Positions 7,887 to 53,233 of a stretch of DNA of 53,461 bases are shown in pieces. Under the pieces are notes generated by a model. That model had not been told where the DNA came from. It worked only from the letters and a program-made list of their open reading frames with translations, and made no database searches. The position numbers and the translations under genes were made by a program. The stretch comes from a virus, in the UHGV virus genome UHGV-0032033. One strand, given 5' to 3'. The number at the start of each line of letters is the position of its first letter. Position 1 is the first letter of the stretch.

Positions 7887-9107
7887 ATGGCGTTATCAGA
7901 TACTAAATTAAGAAGCATCCACGGTAAAAATTATGATGGCCCGGTCGAGATCCCGGATGGCGGAGGTCTGTCAGTAAGGGTAAGTCCGAAAGGCGTCATT
8001 GCGTTTCAGTATCGATACAGGTATGGCGGGAAGCCTAAAAGGATGAAGCTAGGCAACTATGGCGTAATGACGCTCAAGGAAGCCAGGCTAGCGGTAATTG
8101 AGTGCAAGGCGATATTGGCAGACGGCAAAGATCCCGGACTTGCTAAGAAACAGCGCATTGACGAGGCGATGGCGAGAGCAACCGTTAGCGATATCGTGAA
8201 CAACTATCTTAATAAACAGACGACCAGGGAAATTAAGGGATACAAAGAGATCAAGCAAAACTTACAAAAGCACATAATCAAGAGGTATGGCGATTTTATT
8301 GTGGATGATATTAACGCGAGGGCGTGGGAGGCAATATTCTCAGAGATAACGAAAGCGGGCCATCCGGTGCAGGCTGGCGCGATGTTACGCCGCATGAAAT
8401 CTATTGTCGCTATGGCGCAAAGGAAAGGGATAGTAAAAGACAACGAGATCCGCTTGTTGCGAGTGGAAGACGTTGGCAAACCGCCGCGCAAGATCGACAG
8501 ATATTTATCGGGCGAGGAAGTAGGGGAATTCTGGCGTTTTACGGCTGGCGATTTTATGTCTAAGGCCAATATGACATTCTTCAGACTACTGCTATTAACA
8601 GGATGCAGGACGGTAGAATTGAGGCTAGCAAAGCGTGAACATTTTGATCTCAATCACAGGGTATGGAATATCCCTGCGGAACTATCAAAAAACAAAAAGC
8701 GGTTTACGCGCGGCCTGTCAACGTTAAGCGTAGAGCTATTAAGCATGATGTTTGATTGCCACGGCTTCAACATAGTTTTCCCTGCGGTATTGTCGCTGGA
8801 TGGTAAACCAATGGATAAAGCTGTGTGCACAAGACTAGCGACAAGGCTTAGTAATGAAATTGGATTTAAGGCGGGTTTTACTGCGCATGATTTGCGCCGG
8901 ACGTGCCGCACGCATTTAGCGGCATTAGGCGTGACCGCCCAGGTAGCCGAAAAAATGTTGGGCCATACCCTGGGCGGAGTATTAGGAGTTTATGACAGAT
9001 ATGATTATGTAGAAGAACAGAAAGACGCTGCGGAATTATGGGCTAATTACGTTTTATCAGTATCAGAAAGCAAGCCTACTGACTTAAAGAACTGCATTAC
9101 ATCTTGA
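7887..9107 (+). CDS. int: tyrosine integrase (P4-like, with N-terminal arm-binding domain)
   Basis: RBS aaggggg; N-terminal LSDTKLRS...GLSVRVSPKGVIAFQYRYRYGGKPKRMKLG motif, C-terminal catalytic region with HDLRRT and LGH...VYDRY. Confidence 0.85.
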   Translation: MALSDTKLRSIHGKNYDGPVEIPDGGGLSVRVSPKGVIAFQYRYRYGGKPKRMKLGNYGVMTLKEARLAVIECKAILADGKDPGLAKKQRIDEAMARATVSDIVNNYLNKQTTREIKGYKEIKQNLQKHIIKRYGDFIVDDINARAWEAIFSEITKAGHPVQAGAMLRRMKSIVAMAQRKGIVKDNEIRLLRVEDVGKPPRKIDRYLSGEEVGEFWRFTAGDFMSKANMTFFRLLLLTGCRTVELRLAKREHFDLNHRVWNIPAELSKNKKRFTRGLSTLSVELLSMMFDCHGFNIVFPAVLSLDGKPMDKAVCTRLATRLSNEIGFKAGFTAHDLRRTCRTHLAALGVTAQVAEKMLGHTLGGVLGVYDRYDYVEEQKDAAELWANYVLSVSESKPTDLKNCITS

Positions 9108-13025: not shown

Positions 13026-14144
13026 TTACAAAATGGAATATTCAGGGTAATAAACAAAGCGCCCGATCTCCCCATAATCAGGACTGTAAATTATTACCGC
13101 AGCCAGACGCCGCGACCGCCAGCCGCCATTCGTTGAATAAGCGTCTTTGCCCGCTAACGTGCCGTGATGTTCTACGATCCCTAACGATGTTTCTACAACA
13201 GACTGGTGATGAAGATGGCCCGTATGAGCGTAAACCGCCGCCGACTTGCCGAAATCCTCCCGCCAGTCAGAGATGCAGGCAGCTAACAAATTTTCGGGTT
13301 TTTTGATAGTGTGACCGTGATGATAGGCAAGGAATGTTTTGCCGTACTGTGTGTGGTGGACGATAGCAGGGGACACGTCAACCGTCACGCGCGGTTCATC
13401 TTCGTAAAAAGCAGCCAGCGCCGCACGTAGCCAAATCATCCCTGATTGATCATGATTTCCGCTAAGCACCTGGATCTCGACATCCTTATGATTTAGCAAC
13501 ATCTTCCCGACAGCACGCCGGACCGACCGGATCGCCACGTAAACAAGTTTTGCGTAGCGTGAATCACAATCCAAAACGTGATTACTTGATGGCGTCACTG
13601 GTAACAGTCCGTCAGTGTGGAGCACATCCCCGCCTAACAGCAAAACAGCTTTTTCAGACATCGGTGCAGCGCCTACCGCGTAGTCGAAGAAATCATTTAG
13701 CACGCGCTCAGCGATCCCAGTGTCGTAGCTCTCGCCGCATTCTGCCTTGTGAGCAAGCGCCCCGATATGCAGATCAAATACCGGATAAAGGGCCAGGCTT
13801 TTTTGGAAATCAATTTCCGGCACTGGCACGGCCTCCGCGCGGGGTATTTCTTCCGTGAATGCATCACAAGCCGATTGCATTAGCCTTTCCATTTCATCGC
13901 GATCACGGGCTGTTTTAATCCAGCGCATAATCACATTGCCATCCTTATCGACGAGCAATGACTCACCATTGACGCCAAAACCCGGCGCGCGACGCGTGGA
14001 TATTAAACCGCGTTTCGCCAACCGTGCGCCCAGGCGTTCGACGTTGCGTTTTGCCATGCCATATTTTTCTGCTATTTGCTTGTAAGTTTTCCCCTTGTTG
14101 TACTCAGCGATCAGTTCCTCATCGCTGATCTTTCTTTGTGACAT
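13026..14144 (-). CDS. HTH domain fused to calcineurin-like metallophosphoesterase
   Basis: N-terminal HTH (TYKQIAEKYGMAKRNVERLGARLAKRGLI); C-terminal phosphoesterase motifs DLHIG, GGDVLHTD, LSGNHD, HTGHLHH; occupies helicase-loader position between initiator and DnaB. Confidence 0.6.
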   Translation of the reverse strand: MSQRKISDEELIAEYNKGKTYKQIAEKYGMAKRNVERLGARLAKRGLISTRRAPGFGVNGESLLVDKDGNVIMRWIKTARDRDEMERLMQSACDAFTEEIPRAEAVPVPEIDFQKSLALYPVFDLHIGALAHKAECGESYDTGIAERVLNDFFDYAVGAAPMSEKAVLLLGGDVLHTDGLLPVTPSSNHVLDCDSRYAKLVYVAIRSVRRAVGKMLLNHKDVEIQVLSGNHDQSGMIWLRAALAAFYEDEPRVTVDVSPAIVHHTQYGKTFLAYHHGHTIKKPENLLAACISDWREDFGKSAAVYAHTGHLHHQSVVETSLGIVEHHGTLAGKDAYSTNGGWRSRRLAAVIIYSPDYGEIGRFVYYPEYSIL

Positions 14145-15911: not shown

Positions 15912-16138
15912 CAGATCCCGCCGTTGCGTGATATTTGTTTTTCGCTTCGCAGCGACACCGGATTTTTAAAGAGCTTAAGGTAAGTGCCTTTTTGTGCCTT
16001 CCGTTATCTTTTTCCTTGCGTCTTTGCAAGTATGGCCTTACCTTGTCTGCAAGTTTACAAAATGGAATTTTAAGATCAAGGCTTAAAATACACGTTTTGT
16101 GACTTGCATCAAACTTTTTGAGGTTATAGGGTAGCGAC
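15912..16138. promoter_or_regulatory. divergent immunity-region control region (cI promoter / leftward early promoter, operators)
   Basis: Intergenic between divergent cI and early operon; palindromes CTTGCgtctttGCAAG (~16015-16030) and CTTGtctgCAAG (~16042-16053); 16-mer GTTTACAAAATGGAAT at ~16053; cI ATG lacks SD (leaderless-like). Confidence 0.5.
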
Positions 16139-16786
16139 ATGAAAACAAAATGGTATGACTTAGCAAAGCAGCTCATGCGGGCGCAGGGCATGAGTCAGGA
16201 TTCACTCGCAGATCTCATGGGGATAACTAAAGGCGGCCTGTCACACTGGCTGAATGGTCGCCGCGAGCCTAATCTTGAAGATATTGCGCGGATTATGCGG
16301 GCGCTTGGTCGTCGGCAGTTTACTGTTACACATGACGGCATGGTCATTGATGATTCTGTTTCTAATACACTTCAGGCCGCGCCGCCGCGTGATTTAGGTA
16401 GTTACCCGGTTATTGACTGGAAGGACACAGTAAACAATATGGATGACACAAGGCGATCAGCATTACCACACGTTACGACTAGCGTTATTTGTTCAGATGA
16501 TAGTTACTGGCTGGTTGCCAAAGGTGAATCAATGAACGCGCCGCAGGGGTTGAGCATCCCTGCTGGGACGATGATACTTGTAGACCCGCACGCGCCAGCT
16601 ATTGACGGCAAACTGGTTATAGCCCAGCTTGAGGAAGGGCAGATACCGACGTTTAAACAGTTGATTATTGATGGAGGTCAAAGGCTTTTACGTTCGCTCA
16701 ATCCGCTGTATCCGCCAATCCCTATGAATCCAGAATCAAAAATTATAGGCGTGGTGGTTGATGCGAAGATCGTAAACCTGCCATAA
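16139..16786 (+). CDS. cI: cI-like repressor (XRE HTH + S24/LexA-type autopeptidase)
   Basis: N-terminal HTH (SQDSLADLMGITKGGLSHWLNGRREP), C-terminal S24 motifs (VAKGESMNAP, IPTFKQLIIDGG); divergent from early operon. Confidence 0.85.
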   Translation: MKTKWYDLAKQLMRAQGMSQDSLADLMGITKGGLSHWLNGRREPNLEDIARIMRALGRRQFTVTHDGMVIDDSVSNTLQAAPPRDLGSYPVIDWKDTVNNMDDTRRSALPHVTTSVICSDDSYWLVAKGESMNAPQGLSIPAGTMILVDPHAPAIDGKLVIAQLEEGQIPTFKQLIIDGGQRLLRSLNPLYPPIPMNPESKIIGVVVDAKIVNLP

Positions 16787-16789
16787 ACA

Positions 16790-16818
16790 TTAGCCGCCGG
16801 ATGGCGGCTTTTCTTTGC
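16790..16818 (+). terminator. rho-independent terminator after cI
   Basis: hairpin agccgcc-ggat-ggcggct followed by TTTCTTTG. Confidence 0.7.
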
Positions 16819-16909
16819 CCGGAAAACACCAAAACGTAAACAGAAAACGTTATTTATTGTTTAAATATCAATAGCATATAAAATATTTTAAAAAGGTATA
16901 CAAAATGGA

Positions 16910-16938
16910 TTGACTCGATGTTTTACGGGGCGTATATT
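16910..16938 (+). promoter_or_regulatory. near-consensus sigma70 promoter for rightward early operon (pL-equivalent)
   Basis: TTGACT - 17 nt - TATATT; preceded by motif AGGTATACAAAATGG; followed by ~340-nt leader before first ORF. Confidence 0.6.
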
Positions 16939-24585: not shown

Positions 24586-24744
24586 AGTTTACAAAATGGC
24601 GTCATTGCGTGATGCGGATCACATAATGGCGCTTTTTGCCTTGTTTGGGGGTATCCATTTTGTATACTTCAAGCAAACAAAATGCTCTTTAAAAATCCGG
24701 CAGCGCTGAAATGCGTAGAAATCACCTGAAAAGGAGAGAGCATT

Positions 24745-30707: not shown

Positions 30708-30804
30708 TGTGATCTGCATCACGAGGTATACAAAATGGCATTGTTTTGGCAGTGCCATTTTGTTATAAAGAGGCTGAAGAGAGAACGATACGGAGGGTAG
30801 AAAA

Positions 30805-46005: not shown

Positions 46006-46683
46006 ATGATTCATGTTCGGACCGGGCAATTTGCGGCGGTGGTAGACGGTAGGCGGTATGTGTTTAATCCCTGCTTCGCCGCGATGGCAAAAATAGGCAG
46101 TGACAGAGAACTGGTCGAATATTTCGCAACAATCCACGGCGGCAAATATCCATCACGCTTGCCAGCAGACCAAGACTTACGCAATCGCATTCTGGCGCGG
46201 TGTTATGGTGAAATAGTGCAGACATCAATGCACATCCTGAAATGTTGCTCAGACGATGAAATAGGCCCGTTATTGGGCGAGTGTAGGTTTACTCCTTCGG
46301 GCAAGTTGCGACTAAAACCAGGCTTGATGCCTACTGACGACGTTATCACGCTGGCGCAGCATTGCGTGTACCACGGCTTAATCGGTGATGGGCCGGAAGA
46401 AGATGCCGGAGAAATCCCGGAAGGGGAATATAAGCCGACTTTTAACGTCCTTGAATTCGTCTATTCTGCCGTTGCTCACCTGGGCTTGTCAGAATCGGAA
46501 GCATGGAATATGACAATGACCGGATATAGGGCCACTGTACGCGCTAAAACGCCGCCAGACGAAAGAAGCGAAAGAAGTAAGCCAAACGTTCACATAAATA
46601 AACGTGCTTATGACGAGCAAATGGAGGCCGCTAAAAAGGCGCTAAAAAGAATGGAAAATCGCAAGCAAGAAAAAGCCCGGTAG
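46006..46683 (+). CDS. tail assembly chaperone (lambda G-like position)
   Basis: ORF between major tail and tape measure genes; basic C-terminal tail; no frameshift site verified. Confidence 0.45.
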   Translation: MIHVRTGQFAAVVDGRRYVFNPCFAAMAKIGSDRELVEYFATIHGGKYPSRLPADQDLRNRILARCYGEIVQTSMHILKCCSDDEIGPLLGECRFTPSGKLRLKPGLMPTDDVITLAQHCVYHGLIGDGPEEDAGEIPEGEYKPTFNVLEFVYSAVAHLGLSESEAWNMTMTGYRATVRAKTPPDERSERSKPNVHINKRAYDEQMEAAKKALKRMENRKQEKAR

Positions 46684-46692
46684 ATCCGGGCG
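46660..46692 (-). terminator. hairpin terminator for reverse-strand accessory gene 46699..47112
   Basis: cccgg-taga-tccggg with T-run (gcttttt) on minus strand. Confidence 0.55.
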
Positions 46693-46698
46693 TTTGTC

Positions 46699-47112
46699 TT
46701 ATTTGATTCTAACAATATCAATAAAACCGTTACCTAAATCGACAATTGCGTGATTTTTTGCGCCAGCGCCGCCTTCATTAAAAATTCTTTCAGCGAAAGC
46801 AACTTTATTTGCTTTACACTCGTTAGCTATCCTGTTTTTTATTTCGCTATTGTTTTCAAAGACTACGCTTACAGCAGCCTCGTTTACAAGGCCATAATTA
46901 AACCAACGAGCATAAACTGGTTTACCTTCAAAAATTTTATCAATTGCCTTAAAAAGAATTGTGGGTGCGGCTGGTTCTTTTTTGATCATGTCGTGATATG
47001 CGGCTACATGGTTTGCCACTTCTTCACAGTTAATGTTTATGGCCTCGTTAGCGTTCGCGTTAAATGCCAGTGCAGTAATCACAGCAAGTACCATTTTTGC
47101 TAACCGTTTCAT
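46699..47112 (-). CDS. secreted (signal-peptide) protein, reverse-strand moron between tail chaperone and tape measure
   Basis: N-terminal signal peptide MKRLAKMVLAVITALAFNANA; two Cys; AT-rich flanks; opposite orientation to tail genes. Confidence 0.6.
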   Translation of the reverse strand: MKRLAKMVLAVITALAFNANANEAININCEEVANHVAAYHDMIKKEPAAPTILFKAIDKIFEGKPVYARWFNYGLVNEAAVSVVFENNSEIKNRIANECKANKVAFAERIFNEGGAGAKNHAIVDLGNGFIDIVRIK

Positions 47113-47414
47113 AATTAACCCCTGTAATTATTCTGATTTGCTAAATGCTTCCTTTAACTTAGTTATACACGCATATTGTTTATTTTTTAAGTGCTTTTAA
47201 CATTTCTTCGATAAGGTCCGCATAGCGTTCATATTCGTTGGGACGGTAGTTTACGTTTCTCATTTTCTTATCCTCTTTCACTTCCTCCGGGACATCCGGC
47301 CTTCCTGCATCTCTTCTATCTTTCTCTACATCATCTATACAAAACGGCATCGTTAAAATAAAGACATTTTGTATAAAATAGATACATAGATCACATTTTG
47401 CATGAGGTTAAATC

Positions 47415-49757
47415 ATGGCTACCAGTGTAGGCACAATTTATTACGAAGTTGACGCAAAAACAGGACAACTTCTTGTAGCACAACGACAGGCAGACCAAGC
47501 CTTTGACCGTATAGAGCGCGGTGCTAAACAGGCCGATCGCCAGGTAAACACACTGAAAACATCAATCAAAGCACTGACCAGGGTTATCCATCTGCTAATT
47601 GCTGCCGAGGCCGTTAGACAGTTTATGGAAATGGCAGAGCAGGCCAAAATGCTACGCGTCAAAATCAAAATGCTGACAGGCGACGCGGAATCTGCCGGGC
47701 GGGTTTTTGATGGTCTGAAAGAAATATCCAGGGAGACGGGGCAGAGCCTGAAAGATACTGGCGAATTATGGCAAGGCCTGGCTATCTCACTAAAAAACAC
47801 CTCCGCTACGGAAGGGCAATTGCTTAACCTGGTTGGCACCATTCAGAAGATGGGCGCGTTAGGGGGCGCGTCAGCAGAGCAAATGTCAAACTCTATGCGC
47901 CAGTTCCGACAGTCTATTGACGGCGGCGTACTTCGCGCAGAAGAATTCAACAGCTTGCTTGAAAATACGCCGACCATCGTACAAACAATGGCCCGCAAGA
48001 TGGGATTATCAATGGGCCAGTTCCGCGCCGAAATGCTGGACGGCAAGATCACAGCGGAAAGGATGGTTAACGCAATCCAGGCGGCTACGCAGGAAACAAA
48101 CGAGCAGTTCGCACAGTTGCCGCGCACATCCGGCATGGCTATCAATGAACTAAAAGTCGAGGTAATGGGTCTGGTGGAACAACTGGACGATCTTTTCGGT
48201 GTATCAGATGGCGTAGTCTCAGCTATCGACTTGATCACAAAAGGAGTTAATGGGTTAGGTGAGGGCGCTAAATTCGCTAAAACCTGCTTTGATACGCTCA
48301 AAACGGCTGGTAGCGAATTCATCGACATGTTTGATGATGTGGCTGTGAAGGCTGGCGAGGTGGCAGAGAAGATCATCGCAATGGTGACGCCAATCAAGGC
48401 GCTAATGGATGGCTATAAATGGATGAAGGAGGTAGTAGGAGAGCAAACCGACGAATATAACAGCAACTACGAGAAGAAATACGGGAAGACCGTTGGCAAG
48501 GTCATGCAACTACAGGATGATCTGACCGCAGCAATCCAGGCTACAGAAGAAGCAAGGAAAAATGAACAGAATGCTGCCAATGACGGAGCGATTACCGGAT
48601 TCGACAAGCCAGTAGACAAGCCGAAAAAACAAAAAAAAGAGAAGAAATCGGAAGCCGATCGGCTTGGTGATAAAGGCATTAGCGTTTCTGACCAGTACAA
48701 TAAAGACGCAGCAGCTATGCGCAAAGCATTAGAGAACGGCAAGGCCATTGATGCTGCATTCGCCCAGGGTAAAATCACACTCCTTGAGTACCGCGCCGCG
48801 CAAAAAGGGATCGGCAAAGAACTGAAAGAAGAATTAGCGCAGATCCCGGCAGATGAACTGCGTGATAAATGGTCGCAAATAGTTAGCCCGATGGACCAGC
48901 TAAAAGGAGAGGTTGACCCCATCCAGCAGGCGCAAAATGAATGGGCCATCCGTAAGCAAATGTTGTTAGATCTGAACGCATCAGAGACACAAATCAGGGC
49001 CGAACAACTACAGCATGAACGGACCATTACTAACCTTAAGTGGGAGCAATGGCAGGCGCAAAGCGATACCAACGGCCTTATAGGTGATTGCGTGAATGGC
49101 CTCAAAGGCGGTATGAGCAATGCGCTTGTCGGCCTGCTTAACGGTACTCAATCATTGAGCGATGTTTTTGCTAACTTAGGGAGCAATATACTAGGGAACA
49201 TCGGCAACAGGCTTTCTGACATAGCAGCCGACTGGATAGCAGATCAGATCATGATGGAGACGCAAAGCAAGGCAACGCAGGCCAGCACAACGGCAAGCGC
49301 GGTAGCCGCTCAGGGTAGCATCGCTGCGGCAGCGGCCCCGGCAGCGGCGGCGACAGCGGCATCAACTGGCGGTAGCTGGGCGGCGGCTGGCTCGGCGGCG
49401 CTTACTGCGATCATGTCGCTGGCAACATCCATTTTCGGCGGCGGGCGCTTTAATGGTGGTAGCGTAATTGGTGGCAATATGTACCGCGTCGGGGAACATA
49501 ACAGGCCGGAGCTATTCCAGACGTCTAACGGCAACCAATACATGATCCCCGGCGAGAATGGCAGGGTTATCCCGGGGCGTGATATTGGCGGCGGCGGCGG
49601 TATCAGTATGCCTGTTTACATCGACATTCAAACCACAAACGGATTTAGTGACGAAGACACACGCAGACTTGAACAGACAATGGAACGTGTAGCCATGAAA
49701 ATGATAACAAGGGAATCGCAAAGACCTGGCGGGATGTTGCAACCGCGCCGCAAATAA
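47415..49757 (+). CDS. tail tape measure protein
   Basis: 780 aa, alpha-helical N-terminal two thirds, Gly/Ala-rich C-terminal region; position between chaperone and M. Confidence 0.85.
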   Translation: MATSVGTIYYEVDAKTGQLLVAQRQADQAFDRIERGAKQADRQVNTLKTSIKALTRVIHLLIAAEAVRQFMEMAEQAKMLRVKIKMLTGDAESAGRVFDGLKEISRETGQSLKDTGELWQGLAISLKNTSATEGQLLNLVGTIQKMGALGGASAEQMSNSMRQFRQSIDGGVLRAEEFNSLLENTPTIVQTMARKMGLSMGQFRAEMLDGKITAERMVNAIQAATQETNEQFAQLPRTSGMAINELKVEVMGLVEQLDDLFGVSDGVVSAIDLITKGVNGLGEGAKFAKTCFDTLKTAGSEFIDMFDDVAVKAGEVAEKIIAMVTPIKALMDGYKWMKEVVGEQTDEYNSNYEKKYGKTVGKVMQLQDDLTAAIQATEEARKNEQNAANDGAITGFDKPVDKPKKQKKEKKSEADRLGDKGISVSDQYNKDAAAMRKALENGKAIDAAFAQGKITLLEYRAAQKGIGKELKEELAQIPADELRDKWSQIVSPMDQLKGEVDPIQQAQNEWAIRKQMLLDLNASETQIRAEQLQHERTITNLKWEQWQAQSDTNGLIGDCVNGLKGGMSNALVGLLNGTQSLSDVFANLGSNILGNIGNRLSDIAADWIADQIMMETQSKATQASTTASAVAAQGSIAAAAAPAAAATAASTGGSWAAAGSAALTAIMSLATSIFGGGRFNGGSVIGGNMYRVGEHNRPELFQTSNGNQYMIPGENGRVIPGRDIGGGGGISMPVYIDIQTTNGFSDEDTRRLEQTMERVAMKMITRESQRPGGMLQPRRK

Positions 49758-49759
49758 CA

Positions 49760-49790
49760 CTAAGGCCGCTATAAGCGGCCTTTATTTTAC
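49760..49790. terminator. bidirectional hairpin terminator after tape measure gene
   Basis: aggccgct-ataa-gcggcct followed by TTATTTT; convergent gene ends on both sides. Confidence 0.7.
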
Positions 49791-50074
49791 ATGGTAAGGA
49801 TATAAATTAAACAGCACAGGAATGCGGGCGCGGCGAAGTCGCAAACGCTAGCCATATTCCATGCTTTTGGTAAAAAACCACCATACCACGGCATTCTTTC
49901 TCGTTTCCCTCCGCAAAATTCCGCTATGTAACGATATTCAGCCTGTGTGTGTTCCCGCGCAAAAAAGAATGTACATCCAATCAGGCCGCCAGTGAGATAA
50001 TCACCAGTAAGCAGGCCGATAACAACCTGTATAGTCGCCGCAGCCAGTGCGTGACCAATAACGGTTAAATCCAT
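49787..50074 (-). CDS. reverse-strand moron: small membrane protein (95 aa)
   Basis: Three hydrophobic segments; last gene of 4-gene minus-strand operon. Confidence 0.5.
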   Translation of the reverse strand: MDLTVIGHALAAATIQVVIGLLTGDYLTGGLIGCTFFFAREHTQAEYRYIAEFCGGKRERMPWYGGFLPKAWNMASVCDFAAPAFLCCLIYILTM

Positions 50075-50076
50075 CG

Positions 50077-50262
50077 TTAATCCTCCCGATCGTTCTCAAA
50101 TGTGCCATCTACAAATTTTTGCAGCCCGGCGATAAGTTGTGTTGCCTGCGATTTTTCAATTACTATGGTTTCAGTCCCCATAAGTTCGGTTATCCACAGC
50201 CGACCATCCTCATCAAGATCTAACCTAACTCCGTAACATAACTCTGTTTCGTCAATAATCAT
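50077..50262 (-). CDS. reverse-strand moron: small acidic protein (61 aa)
   Basis: MIIDETELCYGVRLDLDEDGRLWITEL...; stop abuts next ATG. Confidence 0.45.
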   Translation of the reverse strand: MIIDETELCYGVRLDLDEDGRLWITELMGTETIVIEKSQATQLIAGLQKFVDGTFENDRED

Positions 50263-50371
50263 TTTTCCTCCTATAATCTTCCGTTACGTGCGACGTAACC
50301 CCTGCCGAACATCACTAACCAGATGTTCCAGATCTCCCGCTAAGTATATTTCTCCTCCTCCATATTCCACC

Positions 50372-50626
50372 TCACTTATGAGCGCCTTTCACTCCGCAAT
50401 GACGGTTGTATTCCAGGTGATCGATAATTAACCAAATATTCAAATCTTCACTGAACAGCCGCCAGTCAGGATTGATATCGAATTTAAAGCCATAACCATC
50501 ACGTAATTTTTTGGGGCGGGCTTCTTTTTTCAGGAAGGCGTTAAGCAACTTCTTGCCTTTCTTGATTACCCGTTCCTGTGCATTCTTTTGTGCTTTCAGG
50601 TTTTTTTCGATAGTTACCAGTTTCAT
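50372..50626 (-). CDS. reverse-strand moron: Lys-rich small protein (84 aa)
   Basis: RBS ggggtgag; basic N-terminal half (KAQKNAQERVIKKGKKLLNAFLKKEARPKK). Confidence 0.5.
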   Translation of the reverse strand: MKLVTIEKNLKAQKNAQERVIKKGKKLLNAFLKKEARPKKLRDGYGFKFDINPDWRLFSEDLNIWLIIDHLEYNRHCGVKGAHK

Positions 50627-50643
50627 AACTCACCCCATCGTCC

Positions 50644-50799
50644 TTAGTTAAGCGCCCTCAGGAAGAAATCCCGGTATTCATCATCCTTCGCGTTCATCAT
50701 GAATTGACCGTATTTGAATGCGTCGTCGAAACCCTTAACAATTGCTACTTCCACTTGCTCGAATGCGTTGTTTAGCATCACTACTACATAGCTACTCAT
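50644..50799 (-). CDS. reverse-strand moron: small protein (51 aa), first gene of minus-strand operon
   Basis: RBS gtgagg; MSSYVVVMLNNAFEQVEVAIVKGFDDAFKYGQFMMNAKDDEYRDFFLRALN; below track cut-off. Confidence 0.4.
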   Translation of the reverse strand: MSSYVVVMLNNAFEQVEVAIVKGFDDAFKYGQFMMNAKDDEYRDFFLRALN

Positions 50800-50969
50800 T
50801 TTTGGGCCTCACTTGCTGGTACCGCTTTTCTTCTTGCTTCCTGTATACAGCTTGTTGCTTCATGTGTGAATCCATATTGTAAACTAGCTATAATTCTTGT
50901 GACGAATATCTCATTTTTCGCGTAGAAGCGCGTAAAGATATATACAAAATGTAACTTACAGGAGGGGGT

Positions 50970-51323
50970 ATGCCGGAAGTGTTCAGATGGACACCACAGA
51001 GAAGCTACAGCGTAAACAGTGAGCCTAACGTGTCCGTTATCAAGCTGGGCGATGGCTATGAACAGCGCCAGACAAAAGGGATTAATCCACTACTTGACAG
51101 CTATACGCTGGTCTTTAAAGGTACGAGCGCCGGATGCGGTGACGCCGGAAACGTGGCGCTCCAGGTTGACGCATTTTTAAGAGCACGTTGCGCGGTCGAG
51201 GCGTTTTACTGGACGCCATCTACAGACGGAGTGAAAAGGCTTTTTGTATGCCGAAAGTGGAGCATGGCGAAAGACGGCCCGGTATGCACTCTGAATGCAA
51301 CGTTTGAACAAGTTATCAATTAA
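50970..51323 (+). CDS. minor tail protein M-like
   Basis: 117 aa; FRWTPQRSYSV...KLGDGYEQRQ...FYWTP...CRKWS...ATFEQVIN colinear with lambda gpM (FRWKV...RFGDGYSQR...FLWTP...CAKWS...AEFEQVVN). Confidence 0.85.
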   Translation: MPEVFRWTPQRSYSVNSEPNVSVIKLGDGYEQRQTKGINPLLDSYTLVFKGTSAGCGDAGNVALQVDAFLRARCAVEAFYWTPSTDGVKRLFVCRKWSMAKDGPVCTLNATFEQVIN

Positions 51324-51336
51324 TGGAGAAGTCAAT

Positions 51337-51522
51337 ATGTATGCTATTTGTGTAGTTGACCGCACGGGCGCTTTTACATTATTTGACGACTATGAAATCA
51401 AAGATCTTACCGTAAAGGCTGACAATGGCGAGATCTGGTATCTTCATGACGTTGGTGACGGGTATGTTGGGTGCAGGTCGAGAGAGGGAAGGGAAGTTTT
51501 ATTTTTGGTTGATAGCGTATAA
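51337..51522 (+). CDS. hypothetical small protein (61 aa) inserted after M
   Basis: RBS ggag; MYAICVVDRTGAFTLFDDYEIKDLTVKADNGEIWYLHDVGDG... Confidence 0.4.
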   Translation: MYAICVVDRTGAFTLFDDYEIKDLTVKADNGEIWYLHDVGDGYVGCRSREGREVLFLVDSV

Positions 51523-51526
51523 ACAC

Positions 51527-51550
51527 GACCCCGCGCGAAGCGGGGTTTAT
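51527..51550. terminator. hairpin terminator after M / small ORF
   Basis: ccccgc-gcgaa-gcgggg followed by TTTAT; near-copy of the J terminator hairpin. Confidence 0.65.
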
Positions 51551-51622
51551 AGTGTCGATAGCAGAATGCATAACAATCCAATAATGATAATAATCATCTC
51601 CAGAACGTAATGTTCGCACATC

Positions 51623-51871
51623 TCATAACGCCCCCTTCAAATATGTCAATCCCTTATCAGTGACGAATGAATGGTTTACCTGGTTTTCATCCGTCATGAT
51701 GATGAATAGCTTTTCCTGTAGGTATTTCGCTTTTGGGTACAGCGTTAAACAGACCTGGTACAAAACCCCGCGCTCAATCAGCAAATCAATAAATTCGTGC
51801 TCATGATAACCGATAAGGCGGGCGGCCTGTTTCAACGTGTACACATAGTCACCGTGATTGCGCCGCGTCAT
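51623..51871 (-). CDS. reverse-strand moron: small putative DNA-binding protein (82 aa)
   Basis: HTH-like segment YTLKQAARLIGYHEHEFIDLLIERGVLY. Confidence 0.45.
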   Translation of the reverse strand: MTRRNHGDYVYTLKQAARLIGYHEHEFIDLLIERGVLYQVCLTLYPKAKYLQEKLFIIMTDENQVNHSFVTDKGLTYLKGAL

Positions 51872-51880
51872 ATTGCCACC

Positions 51881-52228
51881 TTATTTGCCGAACGCTCCCA
51901 GGTTGTCGATACAGAAATCTTTTGCCGCTTTTTCGTATTCACGTTTTGCTTGCGGATCATCTGCCGGGAAACCTTTTGCGTGTATTTCACCAGGACAAGC
52001 CTGATCCATAGAGTTGGCAAAATTAACATTGAAGTTAACATTAATATCTTTCGGGTTCATATCTTCCACCTCATCAACTATCTGTACCGGATTAGCAGCA
52101 TATTTCACTGGATGGCCTAAACTACATTCAAGAATCCTGCCTTCTTCCAGGGCTACTTCTTCGCTATCAAATAATCCGAAACACTCCTTGCTACCACTTA
52201 ACCACACATCAAGACTGTATTTTTTCAT
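51881..52228 (-). CDS. reverse-strand moron: acidic protein (116 aa)
   Basis: RBS gagg; N-terminus paralogous to 52209..52397 (ECFGLFDSEEVALEEG vs KVIALYDDEGEALVDA). Confidence 0.5.
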   Translation of the reverse strand: MKKYSLDVWLSGSKECFGLFDSEEVALEEGRILECSLGHPVKYAANPVQIVDEVEDMNPKDINVNFNVNFANSMDQACPGEIHAKGFPADDPQAKREYEKAAKDFCIDNLGAFGK

Positions 52229-52397
52229 TTTTGTTAGCCTCATATTTGACAGGTTCGATCTGGTATCCCAAAAGGCGGTCATCCTCAACAAGTAAAAGCG
52301 CGTCAACCAATGCTTCCCCCTCGTCGTCATACAGGGCGATAACCTTTTCCCTACCGTCTGTCATGAATACCGTCAACTTCCATAGCTTTTCAGTCAT
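52209..52397 (-). CDS. reverse-strand moron: small acidic protein (63 aa)
   Basis: RBS ggaggtg; MTEKLWKLTVFMTDGREKVIALYDDEGEALVDALLLVEDDRLLGYQIEP... Confidence 0.5.
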   Translation of the reverse strand: MTEKLWKLTVFMTDGREKVIALYDDEGEALVDALLLVEDDRLLGYQIEPVKYEANKNEKIQS

Positions 52398-52526
52398 AAC
52401 ACACCTCCGCGCCATTTTGTTAACTGTGCTTCCGTTTGAGTAAAATATACATATTGTAAAAACCGCGATCAATCCATTTTGGTATGATTTAGCGTGACTT
52501 AGATCACAAAATGACAAGGTGAGAAA

Positions 52527-53231
52527 ATGCGCAATATACCCACAGAAATGATTATTGATTCCGTCGACGCAGGAGTTGGCGCGGTAATTGACTTATTCGA
52601 ACTGGATCTAACTCCCCTGGGAGGCGAGGTTATCCGCTTCCATTCCGGCGCGAATGGCTATTACGGTCCGGTTATCTGGAAGGGTGTGGCTTACAACAGC
52701 TACCCGATCGAGGCTACTGGCTTCGAAATGAAAAACGAAGGCGTTTATTCGCGCCCTCAAATGGTTGTAGCCAACATCGGCGGACTCATTACGGGGATGA
52801 ATAACGATTTCAACGACCTAAGAGGCATGAAGGTTACGCGCCGCCAGGTGGAGGTTAAATACCTGGACGCCGTTAACTTCCCTAACGGCAATCCAGACGC
52901 AGATCCATCTATTGAGGCTGTATCTTTTTACGTCGTTGAAGCAATGAGCGAAGAAACAGCGGATCAGGTGCAATATGAATTGTCAACGCCAATTGATGCA
53001 GATAAAGCCGTTATCCCAGGGCGCACCATCCTTGCTGACGTTTGCCAGTGGCAATACAGAGGCGACGGGTGCATGTATTCTGGCGGCCCGGTCGCAACTG
53101 ATAAAGATACACCAACAAGTGACCCAACGTTAGACAAATGCAGCCACCGCCTTAGCGGTTGCCGTTTGCGTTTTCCGCGTCCGGCAGCACTGCCGATCTC
53201 CTGTTTCCCTGGTTCCAGCAAGGTAGGTTAA
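52527..53231 (+). CDS. minor tail protein L-like
   Basis: 234 aa; C-terminal CQWQYRGDGCMYSGGPVA...DKCSHRLSGCRLRF matches lambda gpL Cys cluster (CTWTYRGDECGYSGP...DKCSKCLSGCKFR). Confidence 0.85.
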   Translation: MRNIPTEMIIDSVDAGVGAVIDLFELDLTPLGGEVIRFHSGANGYYGPVIWKGVAYNSYPIEATGFEMKNEGVYSRPQMVVANIGGLITGMNNDFNDLRGMKVTRRQVEVKYLDAVNFPNGNPDADPSIEAVSFYVVEAMSEETADQVQYELSTPIDADKAVIPGRTILADVCQWQYRGDGCMYSGGPVATDKDTPTSDPTLDKCSHRLSGCRLRFPRPAALPISCFPGSSKVG

Positions 53232-53233
53232 TC

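Follow-up and report, generated by a model that had tools for sequence, protein, structure and literature searches.

Our findings identify, in the viral genome UHGV-0032033 (53,461 nucleotides, referred to here as the window), a compact reverse-strand operon lodged between the tail genes M and L, which are adjacent in lambda. The operon encodes two small acidic proteins, p62 and p115, that are predicted to share a common domain, followed by ANT82, a small protein of the KilAC type, and from its anatomy we conclude that this reverse unit is autonomous and not part of tail assembly. Of the roles we considered, we tentatively favor that of an early-type host-interference operon with an anti-defence-like build, in which variable small inhibitor genes precede a conserved protein of the helix-turn-helix (HTH) type. 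The window holds the complete genome of a temperate coliphage of the mEp021-like (mEpimmI) type: it is 82-86% identical to seven deposited coliphages (mEp021, mEp010, mEp013, mEp044, mEp515, mEp554 and MagusPhagus), and the map of open reading frames (ORFs) opens with K, I and J and closes with L and K, which marks it as a circularly permuted but complete member of the group. The stretch is found in about 35 of 5426 complete E. coli genomes, as one chromosomal copy in each. The mEpimmI group comprises Nus-dependent, non-lambdoid temperate phages of human gut E. coli (PMC11893012). The features of the locus are as follows, with lengths in amino acids (aa) and isoelectric points (pI).

50970-51323: M (PF05939, 99 bits)
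51337-51522, plus strand: f61, 61 aa, pI 4.35, Shine-Dalgarno GGAG
51528-51546, both strands: terminator hairpin of 7-8 G+C-rich pairs
51623-51871, minus strand: ANT82, 82 aa, pI 7.9, last gene of the reverse operon
51881-52228, minus strand: p115, 115 aa, acidic, pI 4.58
51881-52060, minus strand: C-module of p115, residues 57-115, highly conserved and preceded by an acidic linker
52079-52228, minus strand: N-domain of p115, residues 1-50, hypervariable, predicted beta-beta-alpha-beta
52209-52397, minus strand: p62, 62 aa, pI 4.43, first gene of the reverse operon
52245-52397, minus strand: core of p62, 51 aa, predicted beta-beta-alpha-beta
52527-53231: L (PF05100, 239 bits)

An earlier note on this DNA had placed a 61-aa forward ORF, a terminator hairpin and three minus-strand ORFs between M and L, and the ORF map, the Pfam assignments of the flanks and folding bear this out; its sizes of 82 and 61 aa are right, while its 116 and 63 aa are each too long by one (115 and 62). 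Its description of two reverse-strand proteins as acidic (pI 4.58 and 4.43) and of the 82-aa protein as HTH-like (PF03374, ANT/KilAC, at 27.8 bits) also stands. Each of f61, ANT82, p115 and p62 is preceded by a Shine-Dalgarno sequence, and the order L / p62, p115, ANT82 / terminator / f61, M is constant at all 51 related loci gathered from deposited phages, IMG/VR contigs and assemblies, the unit lying at the same place in seven of the seven deposited phages as well. Such constancy makes it a fixed feature of the family and not a strain-specific insert, and the term 'accessory insertion' used in the earlier note is apt relative to lambda but needs qualifying within the family. Pairwise ratios of nonsynonymous to synonymous substitution (dN/dS), estimated from 34-42 distinct alleles per gene (35 for f61), are 0.21 for p62, 0.23 for p115, 0.11 for ANT82 and 0.13 for f61, with L and M at 0.05-0.08. 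Purifying selection across this many alleles establishes that these are real genes and not chance ORFs. That the proteins are tail-assembly accessories, or that the ORFs are not genes, is in our judgment very improbable; the location between M and L would fit the former, but the unit lies on the opposite strand with its own predicted sigma-70 promoter and terminator, none of its proteins matches a tail family, the selection just described excludes chance ORFs, and the f61 family occurs outside tail modules in Rtp-like phages.

The base composition of the unit is likewise its own, with a G+C fraction of 0.41-0.45 as against 0.51 in M and L and a reversed GC skew. Extra genes of this kind, inserted between tail genes that are adjacent in lambda and equipped with their own promoter, terminator and deviating composition, recall the morons, of which HK97 gp15 is an example in a lambdoid tail region. 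The classic definition of a moron, however, expects presence or absence among close relatives together with expression from the prophage, whereas here the unit is present at 51 of 51 loci behind an early-type promoter and the optional extras alone vary; the reverse unit is therefore moron-like in build and not in distribution. The optional genes of some family members are a 75-aa gp72-like gene, a 67-aa ORF, a split HNH homing endonuclease and a 45-aa membrane peptide encoded just ahead of the terminator, and the window carries none of them. Homing-endonuclease genes of the HNH type lie within the reverse cassettes of relatives (L028 2857-3339, L003 562-1068 and L006 6076-6612, one of them split), which indicates that these cassettes tolerate mobile insertions.

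The relationship between the two acidic proteins, first suggested by a shared N-terminal motif, holds under formal alignment. BLASTP aligns residues 3-47 of p115 with residues 4-55 of p62 over 52 residues (expectation value, E, 6e-5), the Smith-Waterman score stands at z 6.75 against 2000 shuffles, and hhalign finds an end-to-end alignment of the family profiles for p62 and for the N-domain of p115 (P 0.001). The AlphaFold2 model of p62 places strands at residues 3-12 and 17-23, a helix at 26-37 and a strand at 42-52, with a predicted local distance difference test score (pLDDT) of 80-89 for residues 1-52 and below 50 for 55-62; that of p115 places strands at 2-10 and 13-20, a helix at 23-37 and a strand at 42-49, with pLDDT 88-93 for residues 1-50 and below 60 in the C-terminal part. 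The two models have a largely common set of generic structural neighbors. Together with a bridging fusion described below, these results make p62 and residues 1-50 of p115, as judged from sequence and predicted structure, true paralogues of one strand-strand-helix-strand fold. A looser theme that the earlier note extended to the 61-aa ORFs at 51337 and 50077, and itself called weak, proved to be at the level of chance (z -0.8 to 1.1), and kinship among the small acidic ORFs in general (61 aa at 51337, 61 aa at 50077 and 51 aa at 50644) was rejected at shuffle z values of -1.1 to 2.0.

Both p62 and the p115 N-domain are hypervariable, with nonsynonymous substitution (dN) of 0.17 in p62 and 0.34 in the N-domain compared with 0.058 in the C-module, and their alleles assort independently of one another and of the flanking genes. 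The p62 and p115 genes do overlap, as had been noted, by 20 nt in the window, but the overlap is specific to this allele: a small indel removed an ancestral ...PVK-TGA stop, which accounts both for the overlap and for the last 11 residues of p62, a read-through tail that differs among alleles, is predicted to be disordered and is absent from relatives that stop at ...EPVK. A programmed frameshift joining the two proteins was rejected, as the p115 frame is +1/-2 relative to that of p62 and there is no suitable 0-frame slippery heptamer. In PHROGs, p62 corresponds to phrog_29559 and p115 to phrog_38567, and every one of the 56 homologues of p115 comes from an E. coli phage or prophage. A match of p62 to Big_3_4 was disregarded at 21.9 bits, below the cut-off of 27.3, and the PGAP label 'transporter' attached to some p62 homologues (P0058, P0060, P0061 and P0063) has no support from sequence or predicted fold.

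The conserved half of p115 has a history of its own. Its C-module keeps an invariant D, S-M-D, C, G-F-P-A-D, P, E-Y-E and F-C, and stand-alone C-module proteins of 56-60 aa begin exactly at the equivalent of p115 Met57 (L052 2471-2653, P0075, P0076). One of these lies in a 121-kb element, adjoining a homologue of the 45-aa membrane peptide, and others lie within small-gene runs of unrelated phages. A candidate start for such a protein is present inside p115 itself:

52058-52072, minus strand: internal Shine-Dalgarno GAGGTGGA and ATG (Met57) inside p115, candidate start of a 59-aa C-module

The nucleotides RAGGTGGA-N6-ATG are preserved across alleles whose residues differ (DEVED, EKVED, DKVEE, DMVEE, DLVEE, RVGP), and the short 59-aa form may also be translated from the p115 message, though the low synonymous substitution (dS 0.32-0.34) of this segment means that recombination could also explain its conservation. 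In a sister lineage (L060/L061), a single 172-aa protein takes the place of p62 and p115 alongside an ANT82 at 73% identity. The last 102 residues of this fusion match p115 at E 2e-31, the profile of the p115 N-domain matches it twice, at residues 58-108 (P 1.6e-9) and 2-48 (P 1e-5 to 8e-7), and the p62 profile matches it at residues 3-55 (P 0.004-0.016). The ancestral content was thus three modules, namely domain 1, domain 2 and the C-module, which are arranged as 1 / 2+C in the window, as 1+2+C in the sister lineage and as C alone elsewhere. The full fusion provides good support for p62 and p115 acting jointly in one function.

Control of the operon appears to reside in the 129-bp divergent region between p62 and L (52398-52526), which is 94% identical among six phages, above its coding flanks, and which we footprinted across 37 distinct family sequences.

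52411-52424, minus strand: leader element GTTAACAAAATGGC (minus-strand letters), between the predicted start site and the p62 Shine-Dalgarno
52413-20 (+), 52450-57 (+), 52475-82 (+) and 52506-13 (-): copies of the motif CATWTTGK
52444-52479, minus strand: P_rev, predicted sigma-70-type promoter with -35 TTGATC (52472-52467), a 17-nt spacer and -10 TATATT (52449-52444)
52480-52488, plus strand: possible extended -10 (TGgTATGAT) for L, read from sequence
52493-52508: palindrome cGTGA-cttaga-TCACA, agreeing with the CRP core consensus at 9/10 positions

P_rev, which has the upstream block AAATGGATTGA and scores 9/12 matches in a promoter scan, is invariant or nearly so in its -35 and -10 hexamers. 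It aligns with a TTGACT-17-TATATT promoter at 16910-16938, the early rightward promoter, which is flanked by the terminator of a CI-type repressor gene encoding HTH_3 and Peptidase_S24 domains and by the counterpart of the mEp021 N-like antiterminator gp17. The genome has exactly three copies of the block AWATGGATTSA, one at this early promoter and one at the promoter of each reverse tail cassette, and the shared block and alignment lead us to class P_rev as early-type, with expression that would be early in timing. The leader element contains one copy of the recurring motif and is nearly invariant next to a variable Shine-Dalgarno region, and it is retained in the divergent fusion lineage. 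Roughly one in four of the distinct family sequences has an altered -10 hexamer (CATGAT, TGTGAT, CGCGAT, TATGGT) in the possible forward promoter, which is therefore weak evidence for a working L promoter; by analogy with lambda, L may instead depend on antiterminated late transcription reading through the terminator.

The four recurring-motif copies and the CRP-like palindrome that had been seen in the divergent region are both there, the former numbering exactly four when the motif is taken as CATWTTGK and the latter reading cGTGA-N6-TCACA at 52493-52508. The GTGA/TCAC half-sites are invariant and the central bases free, and in the fusion lineage (L061) the palindrome is perfect (TGTGATCTGCATCACA, 10/10). 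Its center lies about 62 bp upstream of the predicted P_rev start (-61.5 to -64.5 across plausible start sites, with a 1-nt indel in half the family moving the distance by one) and at about +5 relative to the possible forward promoter. Palindromes resembling TGTGA-N6-TCACA number seven in the genome against 1.4 expected, one of them upstream of the repressor gene and one in the cassette between the H and M genes, an excess that points either to CRP acting at several phage promoters or to a phage protein that reads such sites. Palindromes elsewhere lie at 16098-16113, 24608-24623 and 30708-30723, and also at 8643 and 19402; the first three stand 47.5-48.5 nt upstream of a -10-like hexamer in a CCATTTTGTAWAC motif, with centers near -60 by coordinate arithmetic, which suggests a putative set of activator-dependent promoters (CRP or a phage factor). 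Neither reverse tail cassette follows this spacing.

The motif itself extends well beyond the operon. CATWTTGK occurs 32 times in the window against 12.4 expected, and the tighter CCATWTTGT 14 times against 1.4; the latter clusters in the immunity region around the repressor gene (16057, 16145, 16434 and 16900, within 16052-16913) and occurs in both reverse tail cassettes, with further copies at 13028, 18795, 24591, 24655, 30730, 30755 and 43671. The motif may serve the central circuit of the phage as an operator or as part of its promoters. The sequence GT(T/A)TACAAAATGGA is common to the region upstream of the repressor and the early rightward promoter. Candidate regulators that might read the motif and the palindrome are the repressor, a Cro-like HTH protein, CRP and a late activator. 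No Rfam family was found in 49700-53461.

At the other end of the operon, the hairpin at 51528-51546 has folding energies of -18.9 kcal/mol (plus strand, z -2.8) and -16.8 kcal/mol (minus strand, z -2.6) and is flagged as terminator-like by a scan, and the depositors of four relatives annotate a terminator there (mEp021 on both strands; mEp515, mEp044 and mEp013 via ARNold). It is predicted to be a bidirectional intrinsic terminator common to the reverse operon and the convergent M-f61 unit. The stem is conserved and the loop is reverse-complemented in some phages (GCGAA vs TTCGC; L001, L003 and L005 compared), and the hairpin appears to have been inverted as one unit. The f61 gene is appended to M and is part of the same forward transcription unit as M, outside the reverse operon. 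It is a member of phrog_3249 (E 1.7e-21), and its homologues, at 40-49% identity, lie among the early small genes of virulent Rtp/T1-like phages, as does rtp57 between VRR-NUC and exonuclease genes. This placement of its relatives, well away from tail genes, marks f61 as a portable small gene rather than a tail component.

ANT82 passes the gathering cut-off of the Pfam ANT/KilAC family (PF03374) narrowly, at 27.8 bits against 25.3, over residues 10-79 and profile positions 23-102 of 108, and the same family is recorded as a precomputed match on close homologues. It also belongs to phrog_5689, has an N-terminal HTH-like segment and is named by PGAP as a 'phage antirepressor KilAC domain-containing protein'. 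Pfam finds no second domain in it (AntA/AntB, Bro-N, KilA-N or pRha), the KilAC match standing alone, and its remoter matches are the C-terminal parts of longer Rha/antirepressor proteins. ANT82 is 88-100% identical across the 51 loci (dN 0.033, dN/dS 0.11), which makes it the best conserved of the reverse-operon genes, at about the level of the single-immunity repressor. Between ANT82 and the terminator lies a 16-codon, fully hydrophobic mini-ORF (MIIIIIGLLCILLSTL; 51547-51597, minus strand), in which the GGAG stands directly against the ATG and makes translation doubtful; relatives carry the 45-aa membrane peptide (MKIEVLALIIMGLIVFG...) at this position, and the mini-ORF may be its remnant.

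The properties of ANT82 raise the possibility, which we regard as unlikely yet worth serious attention, that the unit is a secondary lysis-lysogeny control module in which ANT82 is an antirepressor or a damper of RecA and the SOS response, with the acidic three-module protein as its partner. KilAC is the sole recognized domain in the unit, ANT82 is conserved to the degree of the repressor, and the control region has its promoter block and motif in common with the immunity region. Prophages of the mEpimmI group carry a CI-type S24 repressor, yet most are reported not to be inducible by ultraviolet light (PMC11893012). Listeria AriS also ends in an ANT/KilAC domain (PF03374), and its isolated KilAC, when overexpressed, is enough to block the SOS response, probably via RecA (PMC9043618); the Listeria domain is, however, very distant from ANT82, which consists of KilAC only, barely above the Pfam cut-off, and for which any such activity would be a prediction from homology. 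There is also precedent for small acidic partners beside or fused to antirepressors: the dinI-antirepressor-irsA operon of Gifsy phages (dinI-gfoA) and Tum of phage 186 are autonomous operons away from the immunity region with a terminator ahead, combining a small acidic with an antirepressor-type protein, and Tum is fused in 186 and split in PSP3 and Fels-2, (PMC3121763), much as p62 and p115 are separate proteins here but a single one in L060/L061. Those systems, in contrast, are controlled by LexA and contain DinI homologues, whereas here there is no LexA box and no match of p62 or p115 to DinI, Arc/Mnt or another regulator family, and the unit lies between tail genes on the opposite strand. 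Moreover, characterized antirepressors have an N-terminal Bro-N, AntA, KilA-N or pRha domain that is missing from ANT82, and domains that are hypervariable cannot be tracking a repressor that is nearly invariant.

A more specific version, to which we give little credence, holds that the operon is a nutrient-gated damper of induction under cAMP-CRP, in which KilAC and the split acidic protein block the RecA-dependent cleavage of the CI/S24-type repressor or the SOS response. If true, it would explain why mEpimmI prophages are mostly not inducible by ultraviolet light, and it would place a lysis-lysogeny element inside the tail block, wired to the rest of the circuit by the promoter block and motif of the immunity region. 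The late part of the P22 genome holds immI (arc-ant-mnt), an additional regulatory region that contains an antirepressor-type gene together with divergent promoters. The M-L unit resembles it in these respects but has neither ribbon-helix-helix proteins nor the domains of P22 Ant, and it is oriented opposite to late transcription.

Pfam, NCBIfam, PADLOC, PHROGs and PDB sequence searches gave the unit's proteins no family beyond KilAC, the PHROG families named above being at present without a function. No match to a signal peptide, membrane segment or catalytic family was found in the unit proteins, and structure searches with the p62 and p115 models returned no function-giving match. An exhaustive profile search of 1.8 billion representatives gave 13 matches for p115, comprising only the family itself, stand-alone C-modules and two repeat proteins, which were treated as chance on account of their short alignments. 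A match of p115 to the HEPN defence protein HepS (PDB 9oij) was rejected, at E 0.18 and 15 bits and with the conserved R...H (Rx4-6H) missing from the aligned region; HepS sits elsewhere in Gifsy-1 (PMC13043305). The earlier suggestion of DNA mimicry is not supported, given the modest charge of the proteins and the lack of a structural match to a mimic fold (Ocr, ArdA, Ugi or p56 type).

These searches also bear on the idea of a protective role, in which the prophage would express the unit to defend the lysogen (by abortive infection, a toxin-antitoxin-like mechanism or exclusion) with the variable domains as sensors and the C-module as effector, an explanation we consider improbable. It would draw on the moron-like autonomy of the unit (own promoter, own terminator, distinct composition), on a layout of variable N-terminal and conserved C-terminal parts like that of sensor-effector defence proteins, and on the sister cassette between H and M, where the same promoter block serves a ParE-like toxin behind a 51-aa first gene. 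The optional 45-aa membrane peptide of many relatives, which adjoins the stand-alone C-module in the 121-kb element, also speaks for it, but the peptide is absent from the window. The eight cassette proteins, however, have no match at E up to 0.1 among the 5027 PADLOC models, and there is no toxin or nuclease domain; p115, which is acidic and belongs to no toxin family, does not qualify as part of a type II toxin-antitoxin pair, and a mildly acidic module of 59 aa is unlikely as an effector. The relatives of the C-module and f61 are, furthermore, found in virulent or early-gene contexts.

The host-interference reading, which we hold at somewhat short of even confidence, is drawn from the succession of variable small genes and a conserved HTH-type gene, from the hypervariable domains and from the relatives of the C-module and f61, which lie in the early small-gene runs of other phages, strictly virulent ones included. 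In the proposed mechanism, host sigma-70 RNA polymerase would start at P_rev, which may depend on CRP given a palindrome at about class I activation distance, and transcription would run leftwards through p62, p115 and ANT82 to stop at the hairpin that would also end the convergent M-f61 transcript. The products would be small cytoplasmic proteins without an enzyme-sized domain, one a three-module acidic protein (split here) and the other a stand-alone KilAC, and most likely they would bind and neutralize a protein of the host or of a rival phage, outside the late program. A close organizational likeness is to the operons of anti-CRISPR (acr) and anti-CRISPR-associated (aca) genes, which lie inside the structural region of Mu-like Pseudomonas phages. 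Like these, the unit is a short operon with its own strong promoter within a late or structural block, in which fast-diverging small genes are followed by a conserved HTH-type protein and the control region contains an inverted repeat. The differences are that no relation in sequence or specific fold was found between the unit proteins and any Acr or Aca, that the last gene is KilAC and not of a known Aca family, that the gene set is fixed rather than swapped, and that the palindrome, a match to the CRP consensus, does not overlie the promoter but stands some 62 bp upstream.

Several considerations weigh against host interference. Among the homologues of the four proteins, none has had its function tested. 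The unit is fixed in the family, whereas anti-defence genes usually come and go among related phages, an argument weakened by the neighboring ParE-like cassette, which is also present at every locus checked. Aca operators are overlain on their promoters, unlike the palindrome here. With dN/dS well below 1 in the variable domains, relaxed constraint and the persistence of old alleles, and not an arms race, could account for their variability, and the motif in common with the immunity region would fit a lysis-lysogeny regulator equally well. On balance, we rank host interference slightly above the lysis-lysogeny module.

The M-L operon has counterparts elsewhere among the tail genes. A first reverse cassette (49787-50969), between the tape-measure gene and M, encodes four proteins: one of 51 aa, a ParE-like protein of 84 aa (PF24732, pI 9.95), an acidic protein of 61 aa and a hydrophobic-looking protein of 95 aa whose membrane character is read from sequence. 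It has the promoter block ATATGGATTCA at 50867-50877 (minus strand) and a CRP-like palindrome at 50898-50913, and it looks like a putative toxin-antitoxin pair plus extras. The genes for the 51-aa and ParE-like proteins are present at every related locus in which the H-M region was inspected. Local alignment of the 61-aa acidic protein (50077-50262) with the ParE-like protein (50372-50626) gives z 4.6 against shuffles, which may be compositional. A third reverse ORF, of 137 aa and without a Pfam match, occupies 46699-47112 on the minus strand. Its neighbors are a DUF6246 gene on one side and the tape-measure gene on the other, and the surrounding DNA (46650-47400) has 34-39% G+C and a motif copy CATTTTGTATAAAATAG at 47365, upstream of the tape-measure start. 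Counted with the two cassettes, this ORF means that the tail operon is interrupted three times.

Autonomous small-gene units within a tail operon are a well-known kind of thing, and published genomes already contain the genes described here, annotated either as hypothetical or with the name 'putative antirepressor'. The reverse unit (51623-52397) corresponds to gp71-74 of mEp021; neither the mEpimmI paper nor its supplements refer to gp70-74, and the sole related mention found is 'KilAC-like' in a list of core genes (PMC11893012). What appears to be new is the paralogy of p62 and p115, the split or fused three-module architecture, the possible internal start, and the control region that links the operon to the early promoter and a CRP-type site. 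In summary, the phages of the mEpimmI group, which are reported to be as common as lambdoid phages in human gut isolates and whose regulation is barely known, keep in every member examined a unit that is one of three reverse-strand blocks breaking up the tail operon. This unit encodes an orphan protein family with a clear modular history, its three modules being split, partly fused or fully fused. Finding the target of these proteins would give a function to several PHROG families that now lack one and would add to the sparse experimental evidence on the role of the KilAC domain.

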